A stretch of DNA of 8,021 bases, taken from positions 1-8,021 of the IMG/VR virus record IMGVR_UViG_2695420487_000001; one strand, 5' to 3'. Source of the stretch: a virus (Monodnaviria > Loebvirae > Hofneiviricota > Faserviricetes > Tubulavirales > Inoviridae). How positions within the stretch are numbered: position 1 is the first letter of the stretch; each line of letters starts with the position of its first letter. Both the position numbers and the translations under genes were made by a program. Of the stretch, positions 1-8,021 are shown in pieces. The notes under the pieces are model-generated. The model was given only the letters and a program-made list of their open reading frames with translations. It was not told the DNA's origin and did not search any database.

Positions 1-135
1 CTGTCGTTCTCAAAATCGGTGGAGCTGCATGACAAGGTCATCGGGCATTATCTGAACATAAAACACTATCAGTAAGTTGGAGTCACTACCCAATTTTTCC
101 ATTGTGGAACTGATAGGGTTCAGTTTCCTCTTATT

Positions 136-157
136 AAACCGTGGTTTCCCACGGTTT
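136..157. other. Perfect 9-bp stem hairpin (aaaccgtgg / ccacggttt, 4-nt loop) immediately beyond the stop of the minus-strand membrane-protein gene
   Basis: Read directly: 136-144 aaaccgtgg, loop tttc, 149-157 ccacggttt. Flanks are only weakly T-rich (tttgaaatt on +), so function as a terminator is uncertain. Confidence 0.3.
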
Positions 158-161
158 GAAA

Positions 162-584
162 TTACCAGTGATATGAATTTCTTCTGTGCCACCAATAAAG
201 CAGCCCGTATCCGATGATAAGAATTCCGAAAAACATCAACGACATTCCCCAGCCAGTTCCATACCACGAAACCATATCATCGAAAACCAATCCACCCGTT
301 TCACGTACTCCGGCAGCTTCCTTAAGGATTGGTTTGAATACCGGAATCAGAAGGGCAATCGCCAGTGGAGCACCCCAGCGAACAAGACCTGTTTCCATTT
401 TGATCCCGAAAAAGATCCCCGCCCCAACAACAAGCAGCCAGACTATCAGGCTAGGCGCAGTTTCCAGAGCTGTTTGCCATTCAACATCGAAAGTTTTCAT
501 TAGCCAGGCAACAACTGCCAGACAGAAAGCAAATATGCCCACGACAACCAGTTCAACGCCGCTTGTTTCGTTATTTCTACTCAT
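162..584 (-). CDS. Hypothetical small integral membrane protein (about 4 predicted TM helices), 140 aa; phage accessory gene or flanking host gene
   Basis: Intact 140-aa ORF with four long hydrophobic stretches (e.g. VELVVVGIFAFCLAVVAWLM, GWGMSLMFFGILIIGYGLLYWW). AAGGA Shine-Dalgarno-like motif about 8 nt upstream of the ATG on the minus strand. The overlapping opposite-strand ORFs lack such features. No family recognised by eye. Confidence 0.6.
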   Translation of the reverse strand: MSRNNETSGVELVVVGIFAFCLAVVAWLMKTFDVEWQTALETAPSLIVWLLVVGAGIFFGIKMETGLVRWGAPLAIALLIPVFKPILKEAAGVRETGGLVFDDMVSWYGTGWGMSLMFFGILIIGYGLLYWWHRRNSYHW

Positions 585-626
585 CCTTTTGATCCTTTTT
601 CACTGTTCAAAATTCGCGCAATAAAG

Positions 627-655
627 AACGTGCAGTGTTGGTAATACTGCACGTT
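627..655 (-). terminator. Candidate intrinsic terminator between the repressor gene and the membrane-protein gene (perfect 10-bp stem, 9-nt loop, CTTTATT on the minus strand)
   Basis: 627-636 aacgtgcagt and 646-655 actgcacgtt are exact reverse complements. On the minus strand the hairpin is followed by ctttattgcg. It lies 28 nt downstream of the repressor stop (683). Confidence 0.4.
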
Positions 656-682
656 AGTCTCATTCCTGAGACCGCTAGCTTT

Positions 683-1129
683 TTACTCTTCGCCTGACAA
701 TGCTTTTTTCATAAACATTTTTGTACTGTAAGTATATGAACTTAATGCAGAAACTTGCCTTGCAAGTGCCAGAATATCTTGCTTCTCCAGTGTTCTGATG
801 TTCCACACGATGAAATTATGCGCGTTCGTGGTTTCTTCATCAGTATATCCGTCCGCAGAAGTTATCAGCTTTCGCTCAGTAGCTTCTTCTTTAACATCAA
901 GAGCATAGCCATAAGCTAAGGTGTTCAAATCTGCGCCAGTAATTTTAGCTATCTGAATTATATCGCTGAATTTAGGTTCAGTTTTGCCGGACGCTATCCT
1001 GACCAGCGTACTTACGCTAATGCCAGTCTTCTCGGCCAGTTCTTCATAAGTCGAGTGTTCCAGAATTGCCTTTTTTATACGTTCTGCTCTCTGTTTGTCC
1101 GCCATAACTTCATGCTCATTGTTGCCCAT
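683..1129 (-). CDS. Helix-turn-helix (XRE / Cro-C1-like) transcriptional regulator, putative prophage repressor, 148 aa
   Basis: Intact ORF. The N-terminal segment EELAEKTGISVSTLVRIASGK has a typical HTH pattern. GGAG lies 7 nt upstream of the ATG at 1129. The gene is transcribed divergently from the replication gene gII, the arrangement seen for repressors of temperate filamentous phages (e.g. CTXphi rstR). The C-terminal roughly 80 residues are unassigned. Confidence 0.8.
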   Translation of the reverse strand: MGNNEHEVMADKQRAERIKKAILEHSTYEELAEKTGISVSTLVRIASGKTEPKFSDIIQIAKITGADLNTLAYGYALDVKEEATERKLITSADGYTDEETTNAHNFIVWNIRTLEKQDILALARQVSALSSYTYSTKMFMKKALSGEE

Positions 1130-1300
1130 CTACTTCGCTCCATCTTAACAGTGGTTTTTCAATAGTCTGATTACATGCTCAGTTCTGACAATTTAAACAT
1201 TGCAAATGTATTGACTGTCAGATCTGAGCATATTACATTGTGACCATTCAATCTGCTCACAAATGACTATTGACACATATTTTGATGGGTGTGACTACTT
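1130..1300. promoter_or_regulatory. Divergent control region between repressor and gII: candidate sigma70 promoter for gII (-35 TTGACT 1211-1216, 17-bp spacer, -10 TACATT 1234-1239) overlapping a 21-nt-arm imperfect inverted repeat (1170-1190 / 1216-1236)
   Basis: Hexamers read from the sequence. The repeat arms match as reverse complements at 17 of 21 positions. A second TTGACA occurs at 1270-1275 without a convincing -10. No experimental support. Confidence 0.4.
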
Positions 1301-2353
1301 ATGATCGACTGGTTTACCGGAATTCTTCCTTGCACACACCGACCGTTACCGGCCGGTAGTGTCGTCAGCGTTGATGCTGACGGTGCAGTGGAGTGGGAAA
1401 CAGTAAAGCGGTTGACCGTTCGCGGTTCATACGAATCCACAATGAAAGTACGATCTGTTGGATCAGACGGGGAGGGCCGGGCAACTCATCTTTATATTGA
1501 CGGAAATCCGTCAAAATTTCTTCAGGGGCATTCTGTTATTGGCTCCGATGATTTGCAGGGGCTGGTATTAACCGCTTACGCAAGAATATTGGCATTACTT
1601 CATATTCCTCATGATCTACCATCCTATCGTCAGGTAATGGCAGGGCAATTTAAGATCTCACGCATTGATATTAACTACATGTATTCATTATCAACGCTGG
1701 AAAATGTCCGCGCATGGCTATATGCCGCAGAATTCAAGGCTAAAACTCGCCATGGTCGCGCCTGTGGTAAAGGTGGAACTGTTTACTTAGGGAAAAACTC
1801 CCGGCGGTGGAGCCTGAAATTTTATTCAAAATATGATGAGCATATTTCTGGTAAAAAAGGACACCAGATAGCAGAAGAGTTTGTTAAAGCTGGCTTACTT
1901 GACTGGTCTAAAGATAAATTACGAATTGAATTGACGCTAAGAACAACAGAATTAATTGACTTAAACCTTACGCTTGGCAGTAACTGGAATATCGATACTC
2001 CAAACAAATTATTCTCTGAATATGTAGGGAGAATAGAAATGAATCAAAATGCCATTTTGACCGATGAAAAAATAGTTAAACTGCCGAGAAAAATACAATC
2101 AACATATTTACTGTGGAAGCAGGGCGCAAACATGAAAGAAATGCTTCCAAAGCCAACATTTTACAGGCACCGAAAAGAATTATTGTCTTTCGGGATAGAT
2201 ATTAATTTTTATTGTGAATCCCCTGATTCAAATAATGTTGTTCCATTAGTAAGAACACTTGAAGCTAAACCAGCCCAAATCCCTACATGGGTTTATGAGA
2301 AAGGTTTTATTTTTGATTACAACCGTATTTCACATGCCAGTAACTGGCATTAA
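1301..2353 (+). CDS. gII: Replication initiation protein pII (rolling-circle nickase, Phage_CRI-type), 350 aa
   Basis: Starts MID... like fd/M13 pII. Conserved blocks recognised from memory of M13 pII: KFLQGHSVIGSDDL vs KVLQGHNVFGTTDL, KISRIDINY vs TISRIDATF, NNVVPLVR near the C-terminus. It is followed by the gV/gVII/gIX/gVIII block as in Ff/IKe. Confidence 0.9.
   Translation: MIDWFTGILPCTHRPLPAGSVVSVDADGAVEWETVKRLTVRGSYESTMKVRSVGSDGEGRATHLYIDGNPSKFLQGHSVIGSDDLQGLVLTAYARILALLHIPHDLPSYRQVMAGQFKISRIDINYMYSLSTLENVRAWLYAAEFKAKTRHGRACGKGGTVYLGKNSRRWSLKFYSKYDEHISGKKGHQIAEEFVKAGLLDWSKDKLRIELTLRTTELIDLNLTLGSNWNIDTPNKLFSEYVGRIEMNQNAILTDEKIVKLPRKIQSTYLLWKQGANMKEMLPKPTFYRHRKELLSFGIDINFYCESPDSNNVVPLVRTLEAKPAQIPTWVYEKGFIFDYNRISHASNWH
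2039..2353 (+). CDS. gX: pX-like protein from in-frame internal start within gII (C-terminal 104 aa of pII)
   Basis: ATG at 2039 is in frame with gII, and MNQNAILTDE aligns with the M13 pX start (MNIYDDSAV) by position within pII. Inferred by analogy only. Confidence 0.45.
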   Translation: MNQNAILTDEKIVKLPRKIQSTYLLWKQGANMKEMLPKPTFYRHRKELLSFGIDINFYCESPDSNNVVPLVRTLEAKPAQIPTWVYEKGFIFDYNRISHASNWH

Positions 2354-2364
2354 AGGAGCGTGAT

Positions 2365-2682
2365 ATGTCTAATTATGGTCTTTTTGTAAAAGGTAAAATG
2401 CTTGGTGCTCGTCAGCGTAATAAAGTCAATGGTCAGGGCTATTACAATGAAATTGGTATCGGTTTAGAGATCCCTGATGGTTTTGGCGGTACTAAGCAAG
2501 ACCAAATAATTATTCGTGTATCACAGTCCCTTGTGAACGCCGGAGTCATGAATCAAGCCAATAGTTTTACGGGGAAATTAGTTCAAATCCCTGTATATGT
2601 TCGTGTCTGGTCAATGGAGGGTAGAGAAGGTGTGACTTATAATATTTCATCAGATGGTGGGATCACTGAAATAAAAGGTTAA
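2365..2682 (+). CDS. gV: Putative ssDNA-binding protein (gene V position), 105 aa; not obviously similar to fd/IKe pV
   Basis: Intact ORF with a strong AGGAG Shine-Dalgarno 8 nt upstream. It occupies the gene V slot between gII and gVII. Function is assigned from synteny, not from sequence similarity. Confidence 0.55.
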   Translation: MSNYGLFVKGKMLGARQRNKVNGQGYYNEIGIGLEIPDGFGGTKQDQIIIRVSQSLVNAGVMNQANSFTGKLVQIPVYVRVWSMEGREGVTYNISSDGGITEIKG

Positions 2683-2684
2683 TT

Positions 2685-2771
2685 ATGGATGATGTTATTC
2701 AAATATTAATAGCATCCGGCATTGTTATTTCTTTTGGTCTTGGTGCTATTACCGCAGGTGTCATTCGTTAA
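2685..2771 (+). CDS. gVII: Minor coat protein pVII-like, 28 aa
   Basis: Small hydrophobic peptide MDDVIQILIASGIVISFGLGAITAGVIR. It starts 3 nt after the gV stop and its stop overlaps the next start (TAATG), as in Ff phages. Resembles M13 pVII (…IQISVVLCFALGIIAGGQR). Confidence 0.6.
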   Translation: MDDVIQILIASGIVISFGLGAITAGVIR

Positions 2772-2866
2772 TGTATATTGTGTATTTCTTCGGGGCTTAT
2801 ACCTTAGGATTTGCCCTTTTCTATGCGGTCGGTTCGTTTAAAACATTATCTGACCGATTAATGTAA
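2771..2866 (+). CDS. gIX: Minor coat protein pIX-like, 31 aa
   Basis: MYIVYFFGAYTLGFALFYAVGSFKTLSDRLM. AGGTG lies upstream and the start overlaps the gVII stop. Position and size match Ff pIX (…YFTRLM…). Confidence 0.6.
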   Translation: MYIVYFFGAYTLGFALFYAVGSFKTLSDRLM

Positions 2867-2895
2867 TAAAACCTAACTTAAATGGAGTTATTTAT

Positions 2896-3138
2896 ATGAA
2901 AGTCATTTCTGTTATTAAATCTAAAATTGCTGTGGCTTCAACCGCACTTTTTGTTTCTGCAAGTTGTTTTGCTGCTGATGGCGCAACGGGTAGCACTGAC
3001 TATGCAGGTCAGGCAATGGATTCACTGCTGACTCAGGCAAACGATCTTATTGCAAAAGTATGGCCTGCTGTTGTCGCTGTCGTTGGTGCGGGTCTTGCCA
3101 TTCGTTTGTTTAAAAAGTTCTCTTCGAAAGCAGTTTAA
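2896..3138 (+). CDS. gVIII: Major coat protein pVIII precursor (signal peptide plus about 54-aa mature coat), IKe-like
   Basis: GGAG 7 nt upstream. Signal peptide ends ...SASCFA. The mature part ADGATGSTDYAGQAMDSLLTQANDLIAKVWPAVVAVVGAGLAIRLFKKFSSKAV closely resembles the IKe/Ff coat (…IRLFKKFSSKAV), with acidic N-terminus, hydrophobic core and basic C-terminus. Confidence 0.9.
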   Translation: MKVISVIKSKIAVASTALFVSASCFAADGATGSTDYAGQAMDSLLTQANDLIAKVWPAVVAVVGAGLAIRLFKKFSSKAV

Positions 3139-3147
3139 AATTCACTC

Positions 3148-3171
3148 AGGGGCACTCGTTGCCCCTTTATT
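3148..3171 (+). terminator. Rho-independent terminator after gVIII (stem GGGGCA / TGCCCC, then TTTATT)
   Basis: 3149-3154 ggggca pairs with 3160-3165 tgcccc and is followed by tttatt. This is the same position as the strong terminator after gene VIII in Ff phages. Confidence 0.7.
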
Positions 3172-3184
3172 AAAGCGGGTTATT

Positions 3185-4428
3185 ATGAAAAGGAAAATAT
3201 TAATTATTTCCGCTATTCTTATTTCTTCTTTTTCACATGCTGATTCATGGGAAAGCATTACTAAATCTACTTTTCAAAGCTCTGCCTATTCTGAAAGTAA
3301 GCAAATAACCAACCAAGATGGCACTAAACAAACTGTTTATTATATTGATGCAGCTATGCAGGCTTCTGCCTGTCAGGGGGCTAAAGACAGTGCTCAGGGT
3401 GTTTTTACTCAGGTTAAACCAACTTATGAGGGAGTATGGCCTAACTCTGAATTCCGTCTTGTGTTTTCTGACGCTTGTACCTACAGCGACTCTCCGGGCC
3501 AGAAAGATAAATACTGGAATTTAACCGCTTATATTATCGGTGATATTCAGCGTTCTATTCCTGATGAAAAACCCTCCGAGCCTACACCTGAAGAAATTTG
3601 TGAAGCTAAACCTCCTGAAGAAGGTGTATTTAATAATGTCTATCTTATGATGGTGATCGTTATATTTATTATAACGGTTGTGAATATGAGGCCACTGGCG
3701 TCATTGTTTGCCAGGGTGATGGCACTGTTTGTGCGGCGACATGGAAGCCTACCGGAACCGTAGCCGATCCTTCAGATAAGCCTTCTTCTCCTGCTGGCGA
3801 TGGTGGGGATACTGGAGGCGGGGATACGGGGGGTGGTGATACTGGAGGAGGTGATACAGGCGGTGGTAACTCAGGTGGCGGTAACTCAGGTGGTAATGGC
3901 TCAAGTATTACCAAAGGAGATATTCAGTCAGCTATTGAAGGTGCTTCACCTAAAATGGCCAGTGAGATTCATGATAAGTTAACAGAAAAAGACACCTCAT
4001 CTGATGATAAAAAATCGGCTGATGAACAGACTAAAAATAATATAAATCGTCTTGGTGACGCTATAAATAACCTTACTCGCGGAGCCGGACGTTTTGCTGA
4101 TCCTTCTGGCGGTGATTCTCGTTATGGGAAAGGGGATTCCGAATTAGACAGTGCTTCAACATTGGCTGAATCCGAATTAGGAATAGCTAAAGATTCTCAT
4201 GGTGCTTTATGGGAAGCATTCCTGAATAAAGGTGCTATGCTCCCTAGTTTACCTAATGGTAATGGTTGTTCTGAACTTGTTATTTTCCCCGGTGAAATTT
4301 ATCAGATTGATATTGAATGCGATAAATTACTTACTATCAAAGATGCGCTTTCATGGATTTTTTATTGCCTTACCTTCTGGTATGTATTTACGTCTTTAAC
4401 CTCATTACTTCGTAAAGGAGGTGAGTAA
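3185..4428 (+). CDS. gIII: Adsorption / minor coat protein pIII, interrupted by a frameshift (N-terminal part in frame 2 to about 3643, remainder in frame 1 from about 3646); pseudogene or sequencing error
   Basis: Signal peptide [19 protein letters not shown]. The span 3185..4428 is 1244 nt, not a multiple of 3. Frame 1 after the shift gives [37 protein letters not shown] (like the fd N1 motif DRYANYEGCLWNATGVVVCTGDETQCYGTW), a Gly-rich linker (GGDTGGG repeats) and a C-terminal domain ending …[36 protein letters not shown] (like fd …CDKINLFRGVFAFLLYVATFMYVFSTFANILRNKES). Frame 1 has no start codon near the shift, so the two parts are one gene. Confidence 0.8.
3796..3900. repeat. Tandem near-identical short repeats encoding the glycine-rich linker of pIII (GGDTGGG x4, GGNSGG x2)
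   Basis: Direct reading: ggtggggatactggaggc / ggggatacggggggt / ggtgatactggagga / ggtgatacaggcggt / ggtaactcaggtggc / ggtaactcaggtggt. The reverse complement produces the spurious proline-rich ORF 3669..3914. Confidence 0.8.
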
Positions 4429-4769
4429 TGCCTTTATTATTAGGTATTCCTGCACTATTGCGTTTTCTTATTGGGCTTGTTCCTTTATTTATTGGCTATG
4501 TGGCAAGCTTCCTCGCACGCCTTGCGACTAAAACAGGATTGATAGCTGTAGCATTAGTTGCATTAATTACAACAACTGTCACTCTCTTAATGCAATATCT
4601 TGCTGAGGTTATGTACAATGGCCTTCCTGCTGATTTTTCACATTTAATTGCATCTGTCTTACCAGACCATTTTCAGGCCTGTGTTAATGTCATTATGATT
4701 ACTCGAATTAGCGTTTTTGTTTTCGATTTAAAACAAAAATTCCTTGATTATGCAAACAAGGTGATTTGA
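4428..4769 (+). CDS. gVI: Minor coat protein pVI, 113 aa
   Basis: [16 protein letters not shown]… resembles M13 pVI MPVLLGIPLLLRFLGF…, and …VFVFDLKQKF resembles …IFIFDVKQKI. Strong AAGGAGGTGA Shine-Dalgarno. The start overlaps the gIII stop and the stop overlaps the gI start. Confidence 0.9.
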   Translation: MPLLLGIPALLRFLIGLVPLFIGYVASFLARLATKTGLIAVALVALITTTVTLLMQYLAEVMYNGLPADFSHLIASVLPDHFQACVNVIMITRISVFVFDLKQKFLDYANKVI

Positions 4770-5864
4770 ATGACGGTTCATGTCGTAACAGGGAAATTAG
4801 GTTCAGGTAAGACACTGGTTAGTGTTGCCAGAATACAGGAAAGACTAGCTAAAGGCTGTCCTGTAGCCACTAATCTAGATATTAAACTACATAATATGCC
4901 CATGGTTGGTCGTTATGCGAAAAAAACACGCGTGATTCGTGTCCCTGACAAACCTTCATTAAATGATCTGCTGGCTATTGGTGTAGGCAATACTTCCTAT
5001 GATGAATCACGTAATGGTCTACTGGTTCTTGATGAATGTGGGACTTGGTTTAATTCCCGTTCGTGGGGGGATAAAGACAGACAGCCAGTTATTGACTGGT
5101 TTTTGCATGCCCGTAAATTAGGCTGGGATATTATTTTTCTGATTCAGGATATTTCGATTATGGACAAGCAAGCACGGCTGGCGCTTGCGGAGCATGTTGT
5201 TTATTGTCGTCGTTCAGATAAGTTAAACATCCCATTTATTGGTTCTTTCATGAATATAATTTCAGGTGCTCGTTTTTCTTTACCAAAGGTTCACTTTGGT
5301 ATTGTTAAATATGGTGACAACGTTAATTCAATAACTGTTGATAAATGGATGTATACCGGAAAGTCATTATATTCCGCCTACAATACAAAACAGGCTTTTA
5401 CTGATAATTATCCGCATGGTGCTTATTCGCTTTTGCCGCCATTTATTACACATGGTCAGTTTTCCGTTAACAAAGGGTTTAATTATTATATGCGCCTCAC
5501 GAAAATTTACTTTCGAAAATCAAACCGATTAATATTAATGCTTTCATTTCTGGCATTGGGGCTTGGACTTGGCTTCTGGCTACAATCTGGTAAGAATGCT
5601 GATGAGATTTCGGCTATTAAATCTGCTCATGCTGAACAGGTGAGGGCAGTAACTCCTGACAGTACCAGCGATTTACCGAGACTATCAATTAATTCCTTCT
5701 CTCAACTTGGTTTTGATGTTTCCGTTACGTTTGTTGATGCTAAGGGTATGAAGTACCAGTATTTTGATTTAATTAAAGATGGTTATTCTGTTGATATTAA
5801 AGATGCCTGCCGAATTGTTATCAGAAAAGGCCGTTATTTACAAAACATCACCTGCCAGGAGTAA
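4770..5864 (+). CDS. gI: Assembly protein pI (Zot-like P-loop ATPase), 364 aa
   Basis: Walker A motif GKLGSGKT at the N-terminus. Long stretches nearly identical to remembered M13 pI (VTGKLGSGKTLVSV, LLVLDECGTWFNSRSW, IDWFLHARKLGWDIIFL, DKQARLALAEHVVYCRR). C-terminal TM segment LILMLSFLALGLGLGFWL. Confidence 0.95.
   Translation: MTVHVVTGKLGSGKTLVSVARIQERLAKGCPVATNLDIKLHNMPMVGRYAKKTRVIRVPDKPSLNDLLAIGVGNTSYDESRNGLLVLDECGTWFNSRSWGDKDRQPVIDWFLHARKLGWDIIFLIQDISIMDKQARLALAEHVVYCRRSDKLNIPFIGSFMNIISGARFSLPKVHFGIVKYGDNVNSITVDKWMYTGKSLYSAYNTKQAFTDNYPHGAYSLLPPFITHGQFSVNKGFNYYMRLTKIYFRKSNRLILMLSFLALGLGLGFWLQSGKNADEISAIKSAHAEQVRAVTPDSTSDLPRLSINSFSQLGFDVSVTFVDAKGMKYQYFDLIKDGYSVDIKDACRIVIRKGRYLQNITCQE
5490..5864 (+). 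CDS. gXI: pXI-like protein from in-frame internal start within gI (codon 241)
   Basis: MRLTKIYFRKS aligns with the M13 pXI start MKLTKIYLKKFS. It is in frame with gI. No obvious Shine-Dalgarno, so expression is inferred only by analogy. Confidence 0.45.
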   Translation: MRLTKIYFRKSNRLILMLSFLALGLGLGFWLQSGKNADEISAIKSAHAEQVRAVTPDSTSDLPRLSINSFSQLGFDVSVTFVDAKGMKYQYFDLIKDGYSVDIKDACRIVIRKGRYLQNITCQE

Positions 5865-5871
5865 TATTATT

Positions 5872-7137
5872 ATGCGTTTATTTTTCATTGCTATCTTATT
5901 CACTTATTCTTTTTGCGTTTCTGCTGAAACTGTTAACCTGAATAATTCATCCGTTCGCTCATTTGTCCAGTGGTATTCATCAAAAACTGGCAAGCCCGTT
6001 ATTGTTAATCCTGATGTTAAAGGAACCGTAACGGTATTTAATGCTGATGTTAATCCCACAAATATTGATAGTTTCTTCAAATCTGTACTGAATGCTAACG
6101 GATTTGTCATGCTTTCGGGTAATCCTGCAGTAGTCTCTTTGCCGTCAAAATTACCATCACAGATGGCGTCAGACCTTGATGATGCTGATATTCGGTCTTA
6201 TGACTCTTTCCCGTCTGAGCCATCTTATCAGCCAGCGCCAGTGGAGTTTACTGTCAGAAATTTTAAGCTGACAAAAGTTCGATCGTCTGATGTTCAGCAA
6301 CTGGTTAAAATTTATCTGGATTCTAATGGCGGGGGTAATGTTGTGGATTATCCTGGCAATAACTCCCTGATTGTTTCCGCACCTGATGAGCTGCTTCCCG
6401 TCCTTTCCGATTTCATCAATTCAGTGGATGTTGCCCGCGATCAGGTTTTGATTCAGTCGCTGATGTTTGAAACCAGTCTGTCGGATGGTGTTGATTTGTC
6501 GTTTGCAGCCGGTTCTGCATCCGGGCATAAAGTAGCAGGGGGCTTTAATACTTCAGCATTGGGTAGCGCATTGTCGACTGCCGGCGGCTCTTTTGGCATT
6601 TTTGATGGTAATGTTCTGGCCGTATCCCTGCGTGCGGTGCAGAGTAACTCCCGGTCTAAGGTGATTTCAACGCCCCGGATTCTTACCCAGTCTGGTCAGA
6701 CAGGCTATATTTCTGTTGGTAAAAATGTACCCTTTATCACGGGTAAAGTTACGGGTGAATCTGCCGGGGTAAATAATCCGTTTCAGACCATTGAACGTCA
6801 TGATGTTGGCGTATCTCTGAAGGTGACGCCTGTTGTTATGGGGAACGGCCAGCTTGTACTTACTATTGATACCCGCGCTGATTCCATCAGCAACGATGAC
6901 CAGGCATCTGATATTATTACGAACCAGCGTCAGATACAGACAACAGTTCAGATTAAGGATGGCCAGACGCTCTTACTTGGTGGGCTGATTGATTCATCAT
7001 CCAGCAATGCTGACCGTTCTGTACCGTTTATCAGTAAAATTCCGGTGATTGGCTGGCTTTTCAGGAGTAAAGCTGACAGTAATGAGCAACGCATTATGTA
7101 TGTTCTGCTGACCGCTCATATTATTCGCGCGCTTTGA
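5872..7137 (+). CDS. gIV: Outer-membrane secretin pIV (phage assembly/export channel), 421 aa
   Basis: Start chosen at MRLFFIAILFTYSFCVSA (signal peptide) with AGGAG about 10 nt upstream; the track ORF start at 5779 lies inside gI. Secretin blocks closely match remembered M13 pIV: VIVNPDVKGTVTVF, SGQTGYISVGKNVPFITGKVTGESAGVNNPFQTIERHDVGVSLKV, DGQTLLLGGL, VPFISKIPVIGWLF. Confidence 0.95.
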   Translation: MRLFFIAILFTYSFCVSAETVNLNNSSVRSFVQWYSSKTGKPVIVNPDVKGTVTVFNADVNPTNIDSFFKSVLNANGFVMLSGNPAVVSLPSKLPSQMASDLDDADIRSYDSFPSEPSYQPAPVEFTVRNFKLTKVRSSDVQQLVKIYLDSNGGGNVVDYPGNNSLIVSAPDELLPVLSDFINSVDVARDQVLIQSLMFETSLSDGVDLSFAAGSASGHKVAGGFNTSALGSALSTAGGSFGIFDGNVLAVSLRAVQSNSRSKVISTPRILTQSGQTGYISVGKNVPFITGKVTGESAGVNNPFQTIERHDVGVSLKVTPVVMGNGQLVLTIDTRADSISNDDQASDIITNQRQIQTTVQIKDGQTLLLGGLIDSSSSNADRSVPFISKIPVIGWLFRSKADSNEQRIMYVLLTAHIIRAL

Positions 7138-7287
7138 TGGGGCCGTGGCGGGTGCGTTAAGCCCCGGTATGGCCACATCAAGAGCCGGATTTTACGTTTC
7201 ACCACGGAGCCTCTATATGGCCTTAAAACTGACAGGATATGAACAGAAAGACATCTTCTAGGTAATTCAATTACTTAGAGGTTTTTT

Positions 7288-7536
7288 ATGTCTGTAAAAA
7301 GCAGGGTGCGCGATCGACTCCCCAGTGGTCGCATGAAGTCTTACCGTCGTGTTAGTTCACATTTTACCAGTTGTTCCAGGTGGTTTGATAAATCACCGTC
7401 CTGGTATCGCAATATGATGATGACCCGGCCAGAGCGCCGTGAAGTCAGAAAGCTTCTTAATCAGGTCTTGCGTGGTCGTGATGCTGACGGTATCGCATTT
7501 CCTGTCAGTAACAAGCCGTTTGCATGGTGGTGGTGA
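7288..7536 (+). CDS. Hypothetical small basic Arg/Trp-rich protein, 82 aa (accessory ORF between gIV and the dif-like site)
   Basis: Intact ORF with GAGG about 7 nt upstream of the ATG. High Arg/Ser/Trp content and the ending …FAWWW; no family recognised. It lies in a segment that looks GC-richer than the phage body. Coding status not verified. Confidence 0.4.
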   Translation: MSVKSRVRDRLPSGRMKSYRRVSSHFTSCSRWFDKSPSWYRNMMMTRPERREVRKLLNQVLRGRDADGIAFPVSNKPFAWWW

Positions 7537-7916
7537 ACTTTTTAGCCGCTAAAATTTAATGCTTACGAAGTTATCGTAAACTCCGGTCAGTGACAAAACT
7601 CGTTTTGTTGCTGTCCGGGGTTGGCCAAGCCGTACAGTTTTCATTTTGAGCGTTATAGCTGATTCGGCGCGGCAGCGTTCATCTTATCTGACATTGTGGC
7701 TGTATTTCTGGGGAAGGTTTCATGTATCAGGTACAGATTTACCAACTGCAACTGGATGAACAGGCCTGATTGGTGAGGTCAGGCCGTTCACTTACTGCTG
7801 ACAGACATTTGATTCTGATTCGTCTGGAGAAACGGATGATTTTGAATCACTGTCGATAGTTGCCAGTTGACGCCAAGTGTCAACGATTCCCGCCAGATTC
7901 TGCCATCCTTACCATT

Positions 7917-8010
7917 GGTGCGCATAATGTACGACTCGTTATGTTGAAAAGGCCGCTGCGAAAATCGAATCCCGCAGCGGCCTCTTTAGCATAACGTCAT
8001 TGTGCGAACC
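7917..8010. other. dif-like XerC/XerD recombination site pair in inverted orientation forming a roughly 94-nt imperfect palindrome (candidate attP / integration junction of an IMEX-type filamentous phage)
   Basis: 7917-7927 GGTGCGCATAA equals the E. coli dif XerC arm 11/11. It is followed by tgtacgactcg and by TTATGTTGAAA (7939-7949; dif XerD arm TTATGTTAAAT, 9/11). An inverted copy lies at 7984-8010: ctttagcataa (9/11 to the reverse-complemented XerD arm), then ttgtgcgaacc (9/11 to the reverse-complemented XerC arm). Between them is a perfect 10-bp GC stem. Confidence 0.65.
7951..7982. other. Central GC-rich stem-loop of the palindrome (ggccgctgcg / cgcagcggcc, 12-nt loop); could also act as a bidirectional terminator
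   Basis: 7951-7960 and 7973-7982 are exact reverse complements. The stem is followed by tcttt on the + strand and ttttcaac on the minus strand. Confidence 0.5.
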
Positions 8011-8021
8011 AAAAATCTCAA

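Follow-up and report, generated by a model that had tools for sequence, protein, structure and literature searches.

A predicted immunity repressor and its operators in an exchangeable cassette of an Escherichia coli filamentous prophage

Introduction

This report concerns a stretch of 8,021 bases (IMG/VR record IMGVR_UViG_2695420487_000001; "the window" below means this whole stretch) from an Escherichia coli filamentous (Inoviridae) prophage, and in particular a helix-turn-helix (HTH) regulator encoded there directly upstream of, and divergent from, the replication initiator gene gII. We propose that the open reading frame (ORF) 683-1129 codes for the repressor that maintains lysogeny and immunity in a dif-integrating filamentous prophage, and that this protein acts at 18-bp operators of the form ATGCTCA-N4-TGAGCAT, which lie with the gene in an exchangeable cassette. 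We put the probability of this reading at roughly 0.78. The gene, its fold class, the operator motif, the covariation of motif and recognition helix, the cassette boundaries and the selective constraint were obtained in silico; from them we infer DNA binding, repression, autoregulation, the oligomeric state and the immunity phenotype.

Prophages of the CUS-1, YpfΦ and UPΦ types are widespread in extra-intestinal E. coli, Yersinia pestis, Salmonella and Klebsiella, with links to infection fitness. The first-pass annotation of the window, which saw in this gene a repressor of gII, was right yet not new: the Y. pestis counterpart, YPO2273, had already been proposed as an RstR-like repressor (PMC4266046). 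What is added here is the operator sequence, the promoter layout and a predicted switch from ATGCTCA to GACA half-sites through the replacements S38N/S40R, which make the YPO2273-repressor hypothesis testable. No new kind of system is revealed. If the cassettes are heteroimmune, their exchange would explain how different filamentous prophages come to be stacked in tandem at dif.

The regulator gene and its product

The genes and signals needed first are as follows.

683-1129, minus strand: XRE/Cro-CI-type regulator of 148 amino acids (aa), an ORF with an HTH_3 match, divergent from gII at 1301.
1138-1141, minus strand: Shine-Dalgarno sequence GGAG, 8 nucleotides (nt) 5' of the regulator ATG, read from the sequence; UTI89 keeps GGAG despite an adjacent substitution.
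1301-2353, plus strand: gII (with nested gX), rolling-circle replication initiator of 350 aa and presumed repression target (Phage_CRI, G2P_X_C).

The first-pass annotation had described a 148-aa HTH regulator on the opposite strand immediately upstream of gII, and the profile search that it proposed bears this out. Pfam HTH_3 (PF01381) matches residues 27-68 with 38.2 bits against a curated cutoff of 23 (E 1.4e-9), HTH_31 reaches 28.3 against 27, and Phage_CI_repr, at 22.1 against 22, stands at its threshold. An identical RefSeq prophage annotates the protein as a helix-turn-helix protein (WP_001608238.1). The regulator also matches phrog_3557 over its full length (E 6.9e-74, residues 1-148 on profile positions 1-141/142). 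The family is small, with 135 matches at E <= 1e-3 in 1.84 billion representative proteins; both domains are covered in about 25 clusters at 50% identity, and outside these the C-terminal hairpin has no sequence relative.

The protein consists of an HTH domain (about residues 12-73), a variable linker (about 75-97) and a conserved C-terminal helical hairpin (98-145). In the AlphaFold2 (AF2) model the XRE domain has helices at 12-25, 28-35, 39-46, 54-64 and 68-73, with a predicted local distance difference test score (pLDDT) of 82-88, the linker is poorly predicted, and the C-terminal helices (98-112 and 116-145) have a pLDDT of about 60-65. In a Foldseek search the best domain matches were the SinR N-domain, 434 Cro and C-proteins, with template modeling (TM) scores of 0.75-0.82 on the target and root-mean-square deviations of 1.5-1.9 Å (SinR N-domain, 434 Cro), and the longest alignments were to small two-domain repressors (SinR/SinI and arbitrium-phage repressors). 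None of the Foldseek matches reached E <= 1e-3 and none was specific to the C-terminal hairpin; a search of PDB sequences with the whole regulator returned weak HTH matches only. The regulator thus resembles SinR, the arbitrium-phage repressors and the 434 Cro/cI N-domain (3qq6, 1b0n, 3cro, 9iaq) at the level of fold and layout alone: all have a five-helix XRE HTH joined to a helical oligomerisation element (a putative one in the regulator), together with palindromic operators whose half-sites lie about one helical turn apart.

The first-pass annotation had left the C-terminal 80 or so residues unassigned, as an oligomerisation or signal-sensing domain. Oligomerisation is indeed favoured over sensing, but the conserved part is shorter, about 50 residues, and forms a helical hairpin after the variable linker in the AF2 model. 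The motif AHNFIVWNIRxLDKxDILxxxRQVSAL is kept in all homologs, and W109, N110, D118 and R124 are invariant. On the basis of this model, the hairpin probably serves in oligomerisation. Peptidase_S24 was not found in the regulator at E <= 0.1 in Pfam, which indicates that it has no autocleavage domain of the lambda cI/LexA type.

Compared with UTI89 or Y. pestis, the regulator gene shows 28-29 nucleotide differences, 26-27 of them synonymous and 2 not (synonymous divergence, pS, 0.27; ratio of nonsynonymous to synonymous divergence, pN/pS, 0.02). These counts point to strong purifying selection on the protein.

Predicted operators and promoters

The control region between the two genes contains the following elements, the operators being predicted.

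1211-1239, plus strand: best gII promoter candidate (P_gII), TTGACT-17-TACATT, position weight matrix (PWM) score 11.5, top 9 of 79,900 window positions.
1170-1197, minus strand: candidate regulator promoter, -35 TTTAAA at 1197-1192, 16-nt spacer, -10 TGTAAT at 1175-1170; PWM score 8.7, the best on the minus strand.
1175-1192, plus strand: predicted operator O1, ATGCTCA-GTTC-TGACAAT, the outer 18 nt of the left repeat arm, 45 nt 5' of the regulator ATG and in the spacer of the regulator promoter.
1214-1231, minus strand: predicted operator O2, ATGCTCA-GATC-TGACAGT on that strand, the outer 18 nt of the right arm, within the P_gII spacer.
1253-1270, plus strand: predicted operator O3, CTGCTCA-CAAA-TGACTAT, abutting TTGACA at 1270-1275 and predicted at about +8 to +25 from the P_gII start.
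1112-1129, plus strand: possible fourth operator-like site (O4), ATGCTCA-TTGT-TGCCCAT, with 2 palindrome mismatches, overlapping the regulator start codon.

A long imperfect inverted repeat over the best gII promoter candidate had been noted at 1170-1236, and it is present: its 27-nt arms (1175-1201 and 1205-1231) are complementary at 22/27 positions and are separated by 3 nt. Its score of 12 was reached in 0/2000 dinucleotide shuffles of 1130-1300 (mean 5.9, maximum 11). The sole consensus sigma70 site in 550-1400 is on the plus strand, with TTGACT at 1211-1216 inside the right arm and, after 17 nt, TACATT at 1234-1239. From its sequence the repeat appears to be two inverted copies, O1 and O2, of one 18-bp operator, with O3 as a third and possibly a fourth site over the regulator start. 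The centres of O1, O2 and O3 follow each other at 39 bp, which places O1 and O3 78 bp apart. A shorter candidate, the TCAG-NN-CTGA mini-palindrome of each arm (exact just at 1179 and 1218), was dropped; relatives keep ATGCTCA-N4-TGAGCAT instead.

Exact TGCTCA-N4-TGA occurs three times in the window, each time inside 1175-1270, where at most 0.06 would be expected per locus, and it is likewise restricted to the control region in UTI89, in the replicative form (RF) plasmid, in Y. pestis and in the diverged loci L022, L024 and L026 described below. UTI89, F11, the RF plasmid and Y. pestis all have O2 unchanged. The longest stretch of 683-1600 that is free of differences from UTI89 is 1183-1323 (141 nt; P about 5e-20 at the synonymous rate), and it spans part of O1, the whole of O2, P_gII, O3 and the 5' untranslated region. 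Operator variation among copies of this cassette is too scant for a covariation statistic, and its sole signal is that 3/3 natural polymorphisms within operators (O1 of UTI89, O1 of the RF plasmid and O3 of Y. pestis) fall in the N4 spacer.

The hexamer TTGACA at 1270-1275 is perfect and abuts O3, and its position is conserved in L022, L024 (Aeromonas) and L026. It could belong to a second promoter or be part of the operator.

Covariation of operator and recognition helix in relatives

The repeat had been linked to the regulator by position, and comparative evidence now ties the two together. We compared the loci of diverged family members with 76, 64, 57, 56 and 46% identity to the regulator; the scan of genome contigs comprised 6 loci, so that taxonomic breadth is under-sampled. 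All lineages examined (E. coli, Y. pestis, Vibrio, Aeromonas and metagenomic contigs) have the regulator gene divergent from a rolling-circle initiator gene, which is of the Phage_CRI family in L020, L022, L026 and the Vibrio phage and of the Rep_trans family, with RstB, in the Aeromonas contig.

Three diverged lineages, L022, L024 and L026, have the recognition helix of the window, GIS[VI]STLVRI, and all three carry ATGCTCA-N4-TGAGCAT 45 nt 5' of the regulator ATG, the same distance as O1 in the window; the palindrome is perfect in L022 and L026 and has 1 mismatch in L024. Each has a second site beside TTGACA, 77-81 bp away, the counterpart of O3, and O2 is then an extra copy between O1 and O3 in the window. 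Matches at the fourth-site position are weaker in relatives (3 mismatches in L026 and 4 in L022). The proximal copy of L022 falls inside the called replication ORF: the Phage_CRI gene there (916-2394) is called with 492 aa versus 350 aa in the window, with the operator in its 5' end, and its start codon was probably mis-called.

The L020 regulator, 76% identical and paired with the same gII family, carries the changes S38N/S40R in its recognition helix, and in this case GACA-N4-TGTC is found at the same two positions and the ATGCTCA motif is not present. The Vibrio phage, whose helix is likewise changed, also has GACA-N4-TGTC. This covariation of motif and helix is the strongest in silico sign that the regulator would read these sites.

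An exchangeable cassette ending at the gII start codon

673-1300, no strand assigned: predicted immunity cassette of 628 bp (regulator gene, operators and divergent promoters), delimited by homology breakpoints in sister prophages.
627-673, minus strand: two hairpins and then UUCUUUAUU (a U-rich tract), 3' of the regulator stop; RNA fold -23.5 kcal/mol, z -2.98.

A local BLAST of the window against sister prophages gave the borders of the cassette. Homology to sisters with other regulators ends at 668-672 and restarts at 1301/1302, that is, at the gII ATG; in APEC E19057 and in F11 prophages 1-2, which have UPΦ-type backbones, it runs over 138/161-668/672 and then from 1301/1302. With CUS-1 of UTI89 the pattern is a different one: homology covers 91-2690 (left arm, regulator, gII and gV) and 7216-7931, and the structural genes have none. 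The regulator and control region are 94-97% identical in nucleotides to those of CUS-1/YpfΦ, whose structural genes are unrelated. The breakpoints suggest that 673-1300 acts as an exchangeable unit of regulator and control region, with its right breakpoint at the gII ATG. The hairpins at 627-673 are likely a terminator at its left edge, and prophages with other cassettes conserve region 600-668.

Three cassette alleles can be distinguished. Cassette A, that of the window, is present at >=80% coverage in about 99/5,426 complete E. coli genomes. Cassette B, in APEC E19057 and in the UPΦ-type prophages L002 and L015, encodes a 150-aa regulator with 40% identity and the same two-domain layout, which also matches phrog_3557 (E 1.4e-68), and has different repeats. 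Cassette C encodes an unrelated 60-aa phrog_2503 protein and has 3-4 direct CTCnTGAACTCA repeats 5' of gII; the carriers sampled are F11 copies 1-2 (L003, 6630-6981), ZYB62 and ECONIH2, and the loci of cassette C include L017 and L018. The 60-aa protein, for which no Pfam or PDB relative was found, is probably the regulator of UPΦ-type phages, and we would guess at a ribbon-helix-helix fold. Positions 464-1692 of L015 (NZ_CP035884.1) contain two copies of cassette B on either side of a truncated gII fragment, an RS1-like partial repeat of the regulatory module.

To the left of the cassette, 162-584 on the minus strand encodes a 140-aa multi-pass membrane protein (phrog_4174). This gene is 100% identical to that of UTI89, and phages with other cassettes have it at 93-95% identity. 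One role that its product could have is superinfection exclusion.

Counterparts in YpfΦ and CUS-1

The regulator is identical to that of CUS-1 in UTI89 (WP_000527682.1) at 146/148 residues, the differences being A21V and L144V, and the same two differences separate it from the third F11 prophage and from a 9,565-bp replicon of strain TUM14759. UTI89 has the same synteny as the window, with the regulator divergent from a Phage_CRI gII in a dif prophage. In Y. pestis two tandem copies are 99% identical over residues 1-148, with 2 aa differences, and because of this near-identity we take the regulator to be the ortholog of YPO2273 of YpfΦ. YPO2273 occupies the rstR position and was described as a putative RstR-like repressor, YpfΦ lysogens are partially protected from superinfection, and RovA binds the promoter of YPO2274 (PMC4266046). 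We found no later literature on YPO2273.

The control region with O1-O3 is the same in YpfΦ/CUS-1 as in the window, the membrane-protein gene is identical in UTI89/CUS-1, and the nucleotide divergence of the regulator, 6%, is nearly all synonymous. The difference is that the cassette of the window rides on a structural and assembly module of the UPΦ/IKe/I2-2 type; according to the UPΦ paper, just gII and gV are common to those phages and YpfΦ (PMC7307601). By sequence, then, the regulator is the putative repressor that was already noted in YpfΦ/CUS-1, moved by recombination onto a backbone like that of UPΦ and IKe.

Comparison with RstR of CTXφ

The arrangement has much in common with rstR/ig-2 of CTXφ. 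In both, an HTH_3 repressor is divergent from the initiator gene and operators (predicted in silico in the window) lie over the rep promoter; the cassettes are allelic and break at the rep gene (with heteroimmunity in CTXφ, and as alleles A, B and C by sequence on the side of the window); prophages stand in tandem at dif; and both repressors lack an S24 autocleavage domain. According to a study cited in PMC8402870, it is as a dimer of dimers that RstR represses PrstA.

Orthology of the two was rejected. RstR (El Tor) and the regulator share 27% identity over 78 residues, in the HTH alone, and their C-terminal parts do not align. CTXφ is not among the 60 listed of 126 tblastn matches (E <= 10), all six Vibrio records there being other phages, and the operator motif is absent from CTXφ. 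The initiators also differ: RstA of CTXφ is a Rep_trans protein, unrelated to the Phage_CRI gII of the window, and it is the Aeromonas homolog, unlike the regulator of the window, that is paired with Rep_trans and RstB. Induction of CTXφ requires LexA cleavage, according to a reference in PMC8402870, whereas no LexA box (CTGT-N8-ACAG, <=1 mismatch) was found in the control region of the window and an RstC-like antirepressor was not identified. LexA/SOS control as in CTXφ was rejected on the missing LexA box and the missing S24 domain. By analogy, the system would work like rstR/ig-2 but stands outside the RstR family beyond the HTH_3 superfamily.

A model of immunity and its alternatives

In the mechanism that we propose, regulator dimers, probably further assembled through the C-terminal hairpin, would bind the 18-bp operators. 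Occupation of O2 in the P_gII spacer and of O3 just past the predicted start would turn off gII and gX, so that RF replication and expression of the downstream genes would cease as well. O1, in the spacer of the regulator promoter, and the possible O4 over the start codon would provide autoregulation. The cassette appears to be swapped whole among phages of the UPΦ, CUS-1 and YpfΦ types, whose immunity specificity it would determine, as rstR/ig-2 does in CTXφ.

Several observations weigh against this reading. Without induction, prophages of the UPΦ and YpfΦ types release virions or replicate as episomes (PMC7307601, PMC4266046; the TUM14759 RF circle), UPΦ901 being a case of shedding without induction (PMC7307601). 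Because of this, repression is at most partial, and it is probably leaky. An induction route was not found, the regulator having no S24 domain and the control region no LexA box. The operator spacing of 39 bp is a non-integral number of helical turns, the right half-site is degenerate in every operator of the window (4-5 of 7), and the promoters of the window are consensus matches alone. No acceptable -10 follows TTGACA 1270-1275 in the window, and because this conserved hexamer lacks a recognisable -10, the true start site of gII is uncertain. AF2 confidence for the C-terminal domain is just about 60-65. Finally, the role of YPO2273 "awaits experimental demonstration" (PMC4266046).

Some of the same facts could be taken to mean that the regulator is a Cro-like or activator switch that promotes replication, or that its main targets are the accessory genes to the left (those of the 140-aa membrane protein and of cargo). 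Whether regulation is positive or negative cannot be read from an HTH_3 domain alone, the hairpins after the regulator may permit read-through into the 162-584 gene, and such prophages make virions without induction (PMC7307601). We nevertheless regard this alternative as improbable. The positions of O2, between -35 and -10, and of O3, past the start, are typical of repression; because the regulator is the sole regulator of the phage, a pure Cro role would leave the phage without a repressor; the leftward genes do not move with the cassette when it is exchanged, as the identities of the membrane-protein gene given above indicate; and protection from superinfection has been reported for YpfΦ (PMC4266046).

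The palindrome itself might instead be a replication element, either the (+) origin bound and nicked by gIIp or a single-strand hairpin (-) origin. In Ff and IKe phages the origin lies directly upstream of gII, and the position of the palindrome matches that placement. There is also an outer inverted repeat, TCAATAGTC, at 1159-1167 and 1265-1273, and TTTTTCAATAGTC at 1155-1167 is faintly like TTCTTTAATAGTG, which we take to be the f1 nick region and count in favour of an origin. Against this stand sister prophages whose gII is 83-89% identical and whose sequence over about 672-1300 is wholly different: since sisters with similar gII differ here, the sequence depends on which regulator allele is present rather than on gII. 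The operator motif goes with the regulator even beside another initiator family (Rep_trans in Aeromonas). A better candidate for the origin lies at 7846-7890, in the backbone common to CUS-1, which has the same gII, and is 96.7% identical there. We therefore rejected the origin reading of the palindrome, which we consider very unlikely. The candidate (+) origin at 7846-7890 is non-coding and consists of CTGTCGATAGTTGCC followed by the inverted repeat GTTGAC-N7-GTCAAC; its CTGTCGATAGTTGCC region presumably resembles the f1 nick region.

Least credible of all is a toxin-antitoxin or defence pair of the HigA/HipB kind, unrelated to replication control, with the regulator as antitoxin or regulator of the adjacent membrane protein: the two genes have the same orientation and the regulator has weak, HTH-only similarity to HigA and HipB-type antitoxins, but the reading was rejected on synteny, the regulator being swapped while the membrane-protein gene stays and the downstream neighbours varying in other lineages beside a constant divergent rep gene, and moreover terminator-like hairpins separate the two genes and the membrane protein has no toxin-family match.

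The prophage and its setting

The immunity repressor proposed here belongs to an element whose temperate lifestyle, suggested in the first-pass annotation, is supported by tandem copies beside hipBA, a dif-like attP and a sister phage circle in a lysogenic strain. Positions 91-8021 of the window are 99.96% identical to NZ_CP144928.1, where the element stands in tandem copies with a 9,078-bp period directly after hipBA, in the neighbourhood of the chromosomal dif. The dif-like attP, GGTGCGCATAA-TGTACGACTCG-TTATGTTGAAA, is at 7917-7949; its XerC arm is perfect, its XerD arm has 2 mismatches, and its centre is 11 nt versus the usual 6. A CUS-1-type phage with the same regulator was found as a 9,565-bp free circle (NZ_CP128883.1, L004) in strain TUM14759, whose chromosome (H85) also carries prophage copies, so that the strain has both circle and integrated copies, which fits a lysogen whose replicative form is active.

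An Ff-like structural module beneath the cassette had also been proposed, and it is supported by the collinearity of gII-gIV with I2-2 (78% coverage, 66.7% nucleotide identity) and with IKe and by the swap of the cassette exactly to the gII ATG. The gII product matches Phage_CRI (E 2e-72) and G2P_X_C (E 7e-33); the other forward genes are, by Pfam, gV, g3p (with an IKe-type pilus-binding domain), gVI, gI (Zot) and gIV (secretin), and gVIII is annotated as "major coat protein" in the identical RefSeq copy. IKe and I2-2 do not integrate and have only an intergenic region at the position of the regulator (PMC7307601), and the first-pass annotation had described the classical Ff and IKe phages as having no repressor; the window element differs from both in having a regulator and in integrating. 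The UPΦ viruses of Shapiro and Putonti (2020), by comparison, are Lineavirus-like, integrate at dif and form tandem prophages, and that paper makes no mention of a regulator (PMC7307601). Their likeness to the window extends to the collinear core, the IKe-type g3p, the dif site, the tandem arrays and the reverse-oriented ORFs beside dif. The window element is a dif-integrated tandem prophage of the UPΦ/IKe/I2-2-like type.

A few features of this copy may be recorded. A strong GC-rich hairpin (7951-7988) directly follows the dif-like attP. Positions 1-90 are an IS1 end, 96-98% identical to IS1 copies of many phages and genomes, and it stands where CP144928 and UTI89 have a gene for a 369-aa phrog_17621 protein. 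In gIII (3185-4428) a 1-base deletion at about 3642, relative to CP144928, splits g3p into ORFs 3050-3763 and 3955-4428, which could mean a defective copy or a sequencing error.

A homolog on conjugative plasmids

A 122-aa homolog of the regulator is encoded on IncP-1-like conjugative plasmids of E. coli and Salmonella (about 41-46 kb; TrfA, Trb/Tra, MOBP/MPF_T), at 29453-29821 of L014 (NZ_CP033354.2) and 23968-24336 of L027 (NZ_CP062878.1), where it adjoins a resolvase gene at the end of the trb operon. Its residues 26-58 (33 residues, HTH helices 2-3) are identical to those of the phage regulator, with 5 nucleotide differences. The TGCTCA-N4-TGA site is absent from both plasmids scanned, and no conjugative plasmid in PLSDB matches the phage control region. 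From their sequences the plasmid homologs look like orphan repressors. We may speculate, as an idea that we hold to be unlikely, that they are "repressor mimics": by shutting off gII of incoming filamentous phages of the YpfΦ/CUS-1/UPΦ types, themselves likely pilus-specific, they would guard hosts that bear pili. If true, this would be a defence by borrowed immunity.

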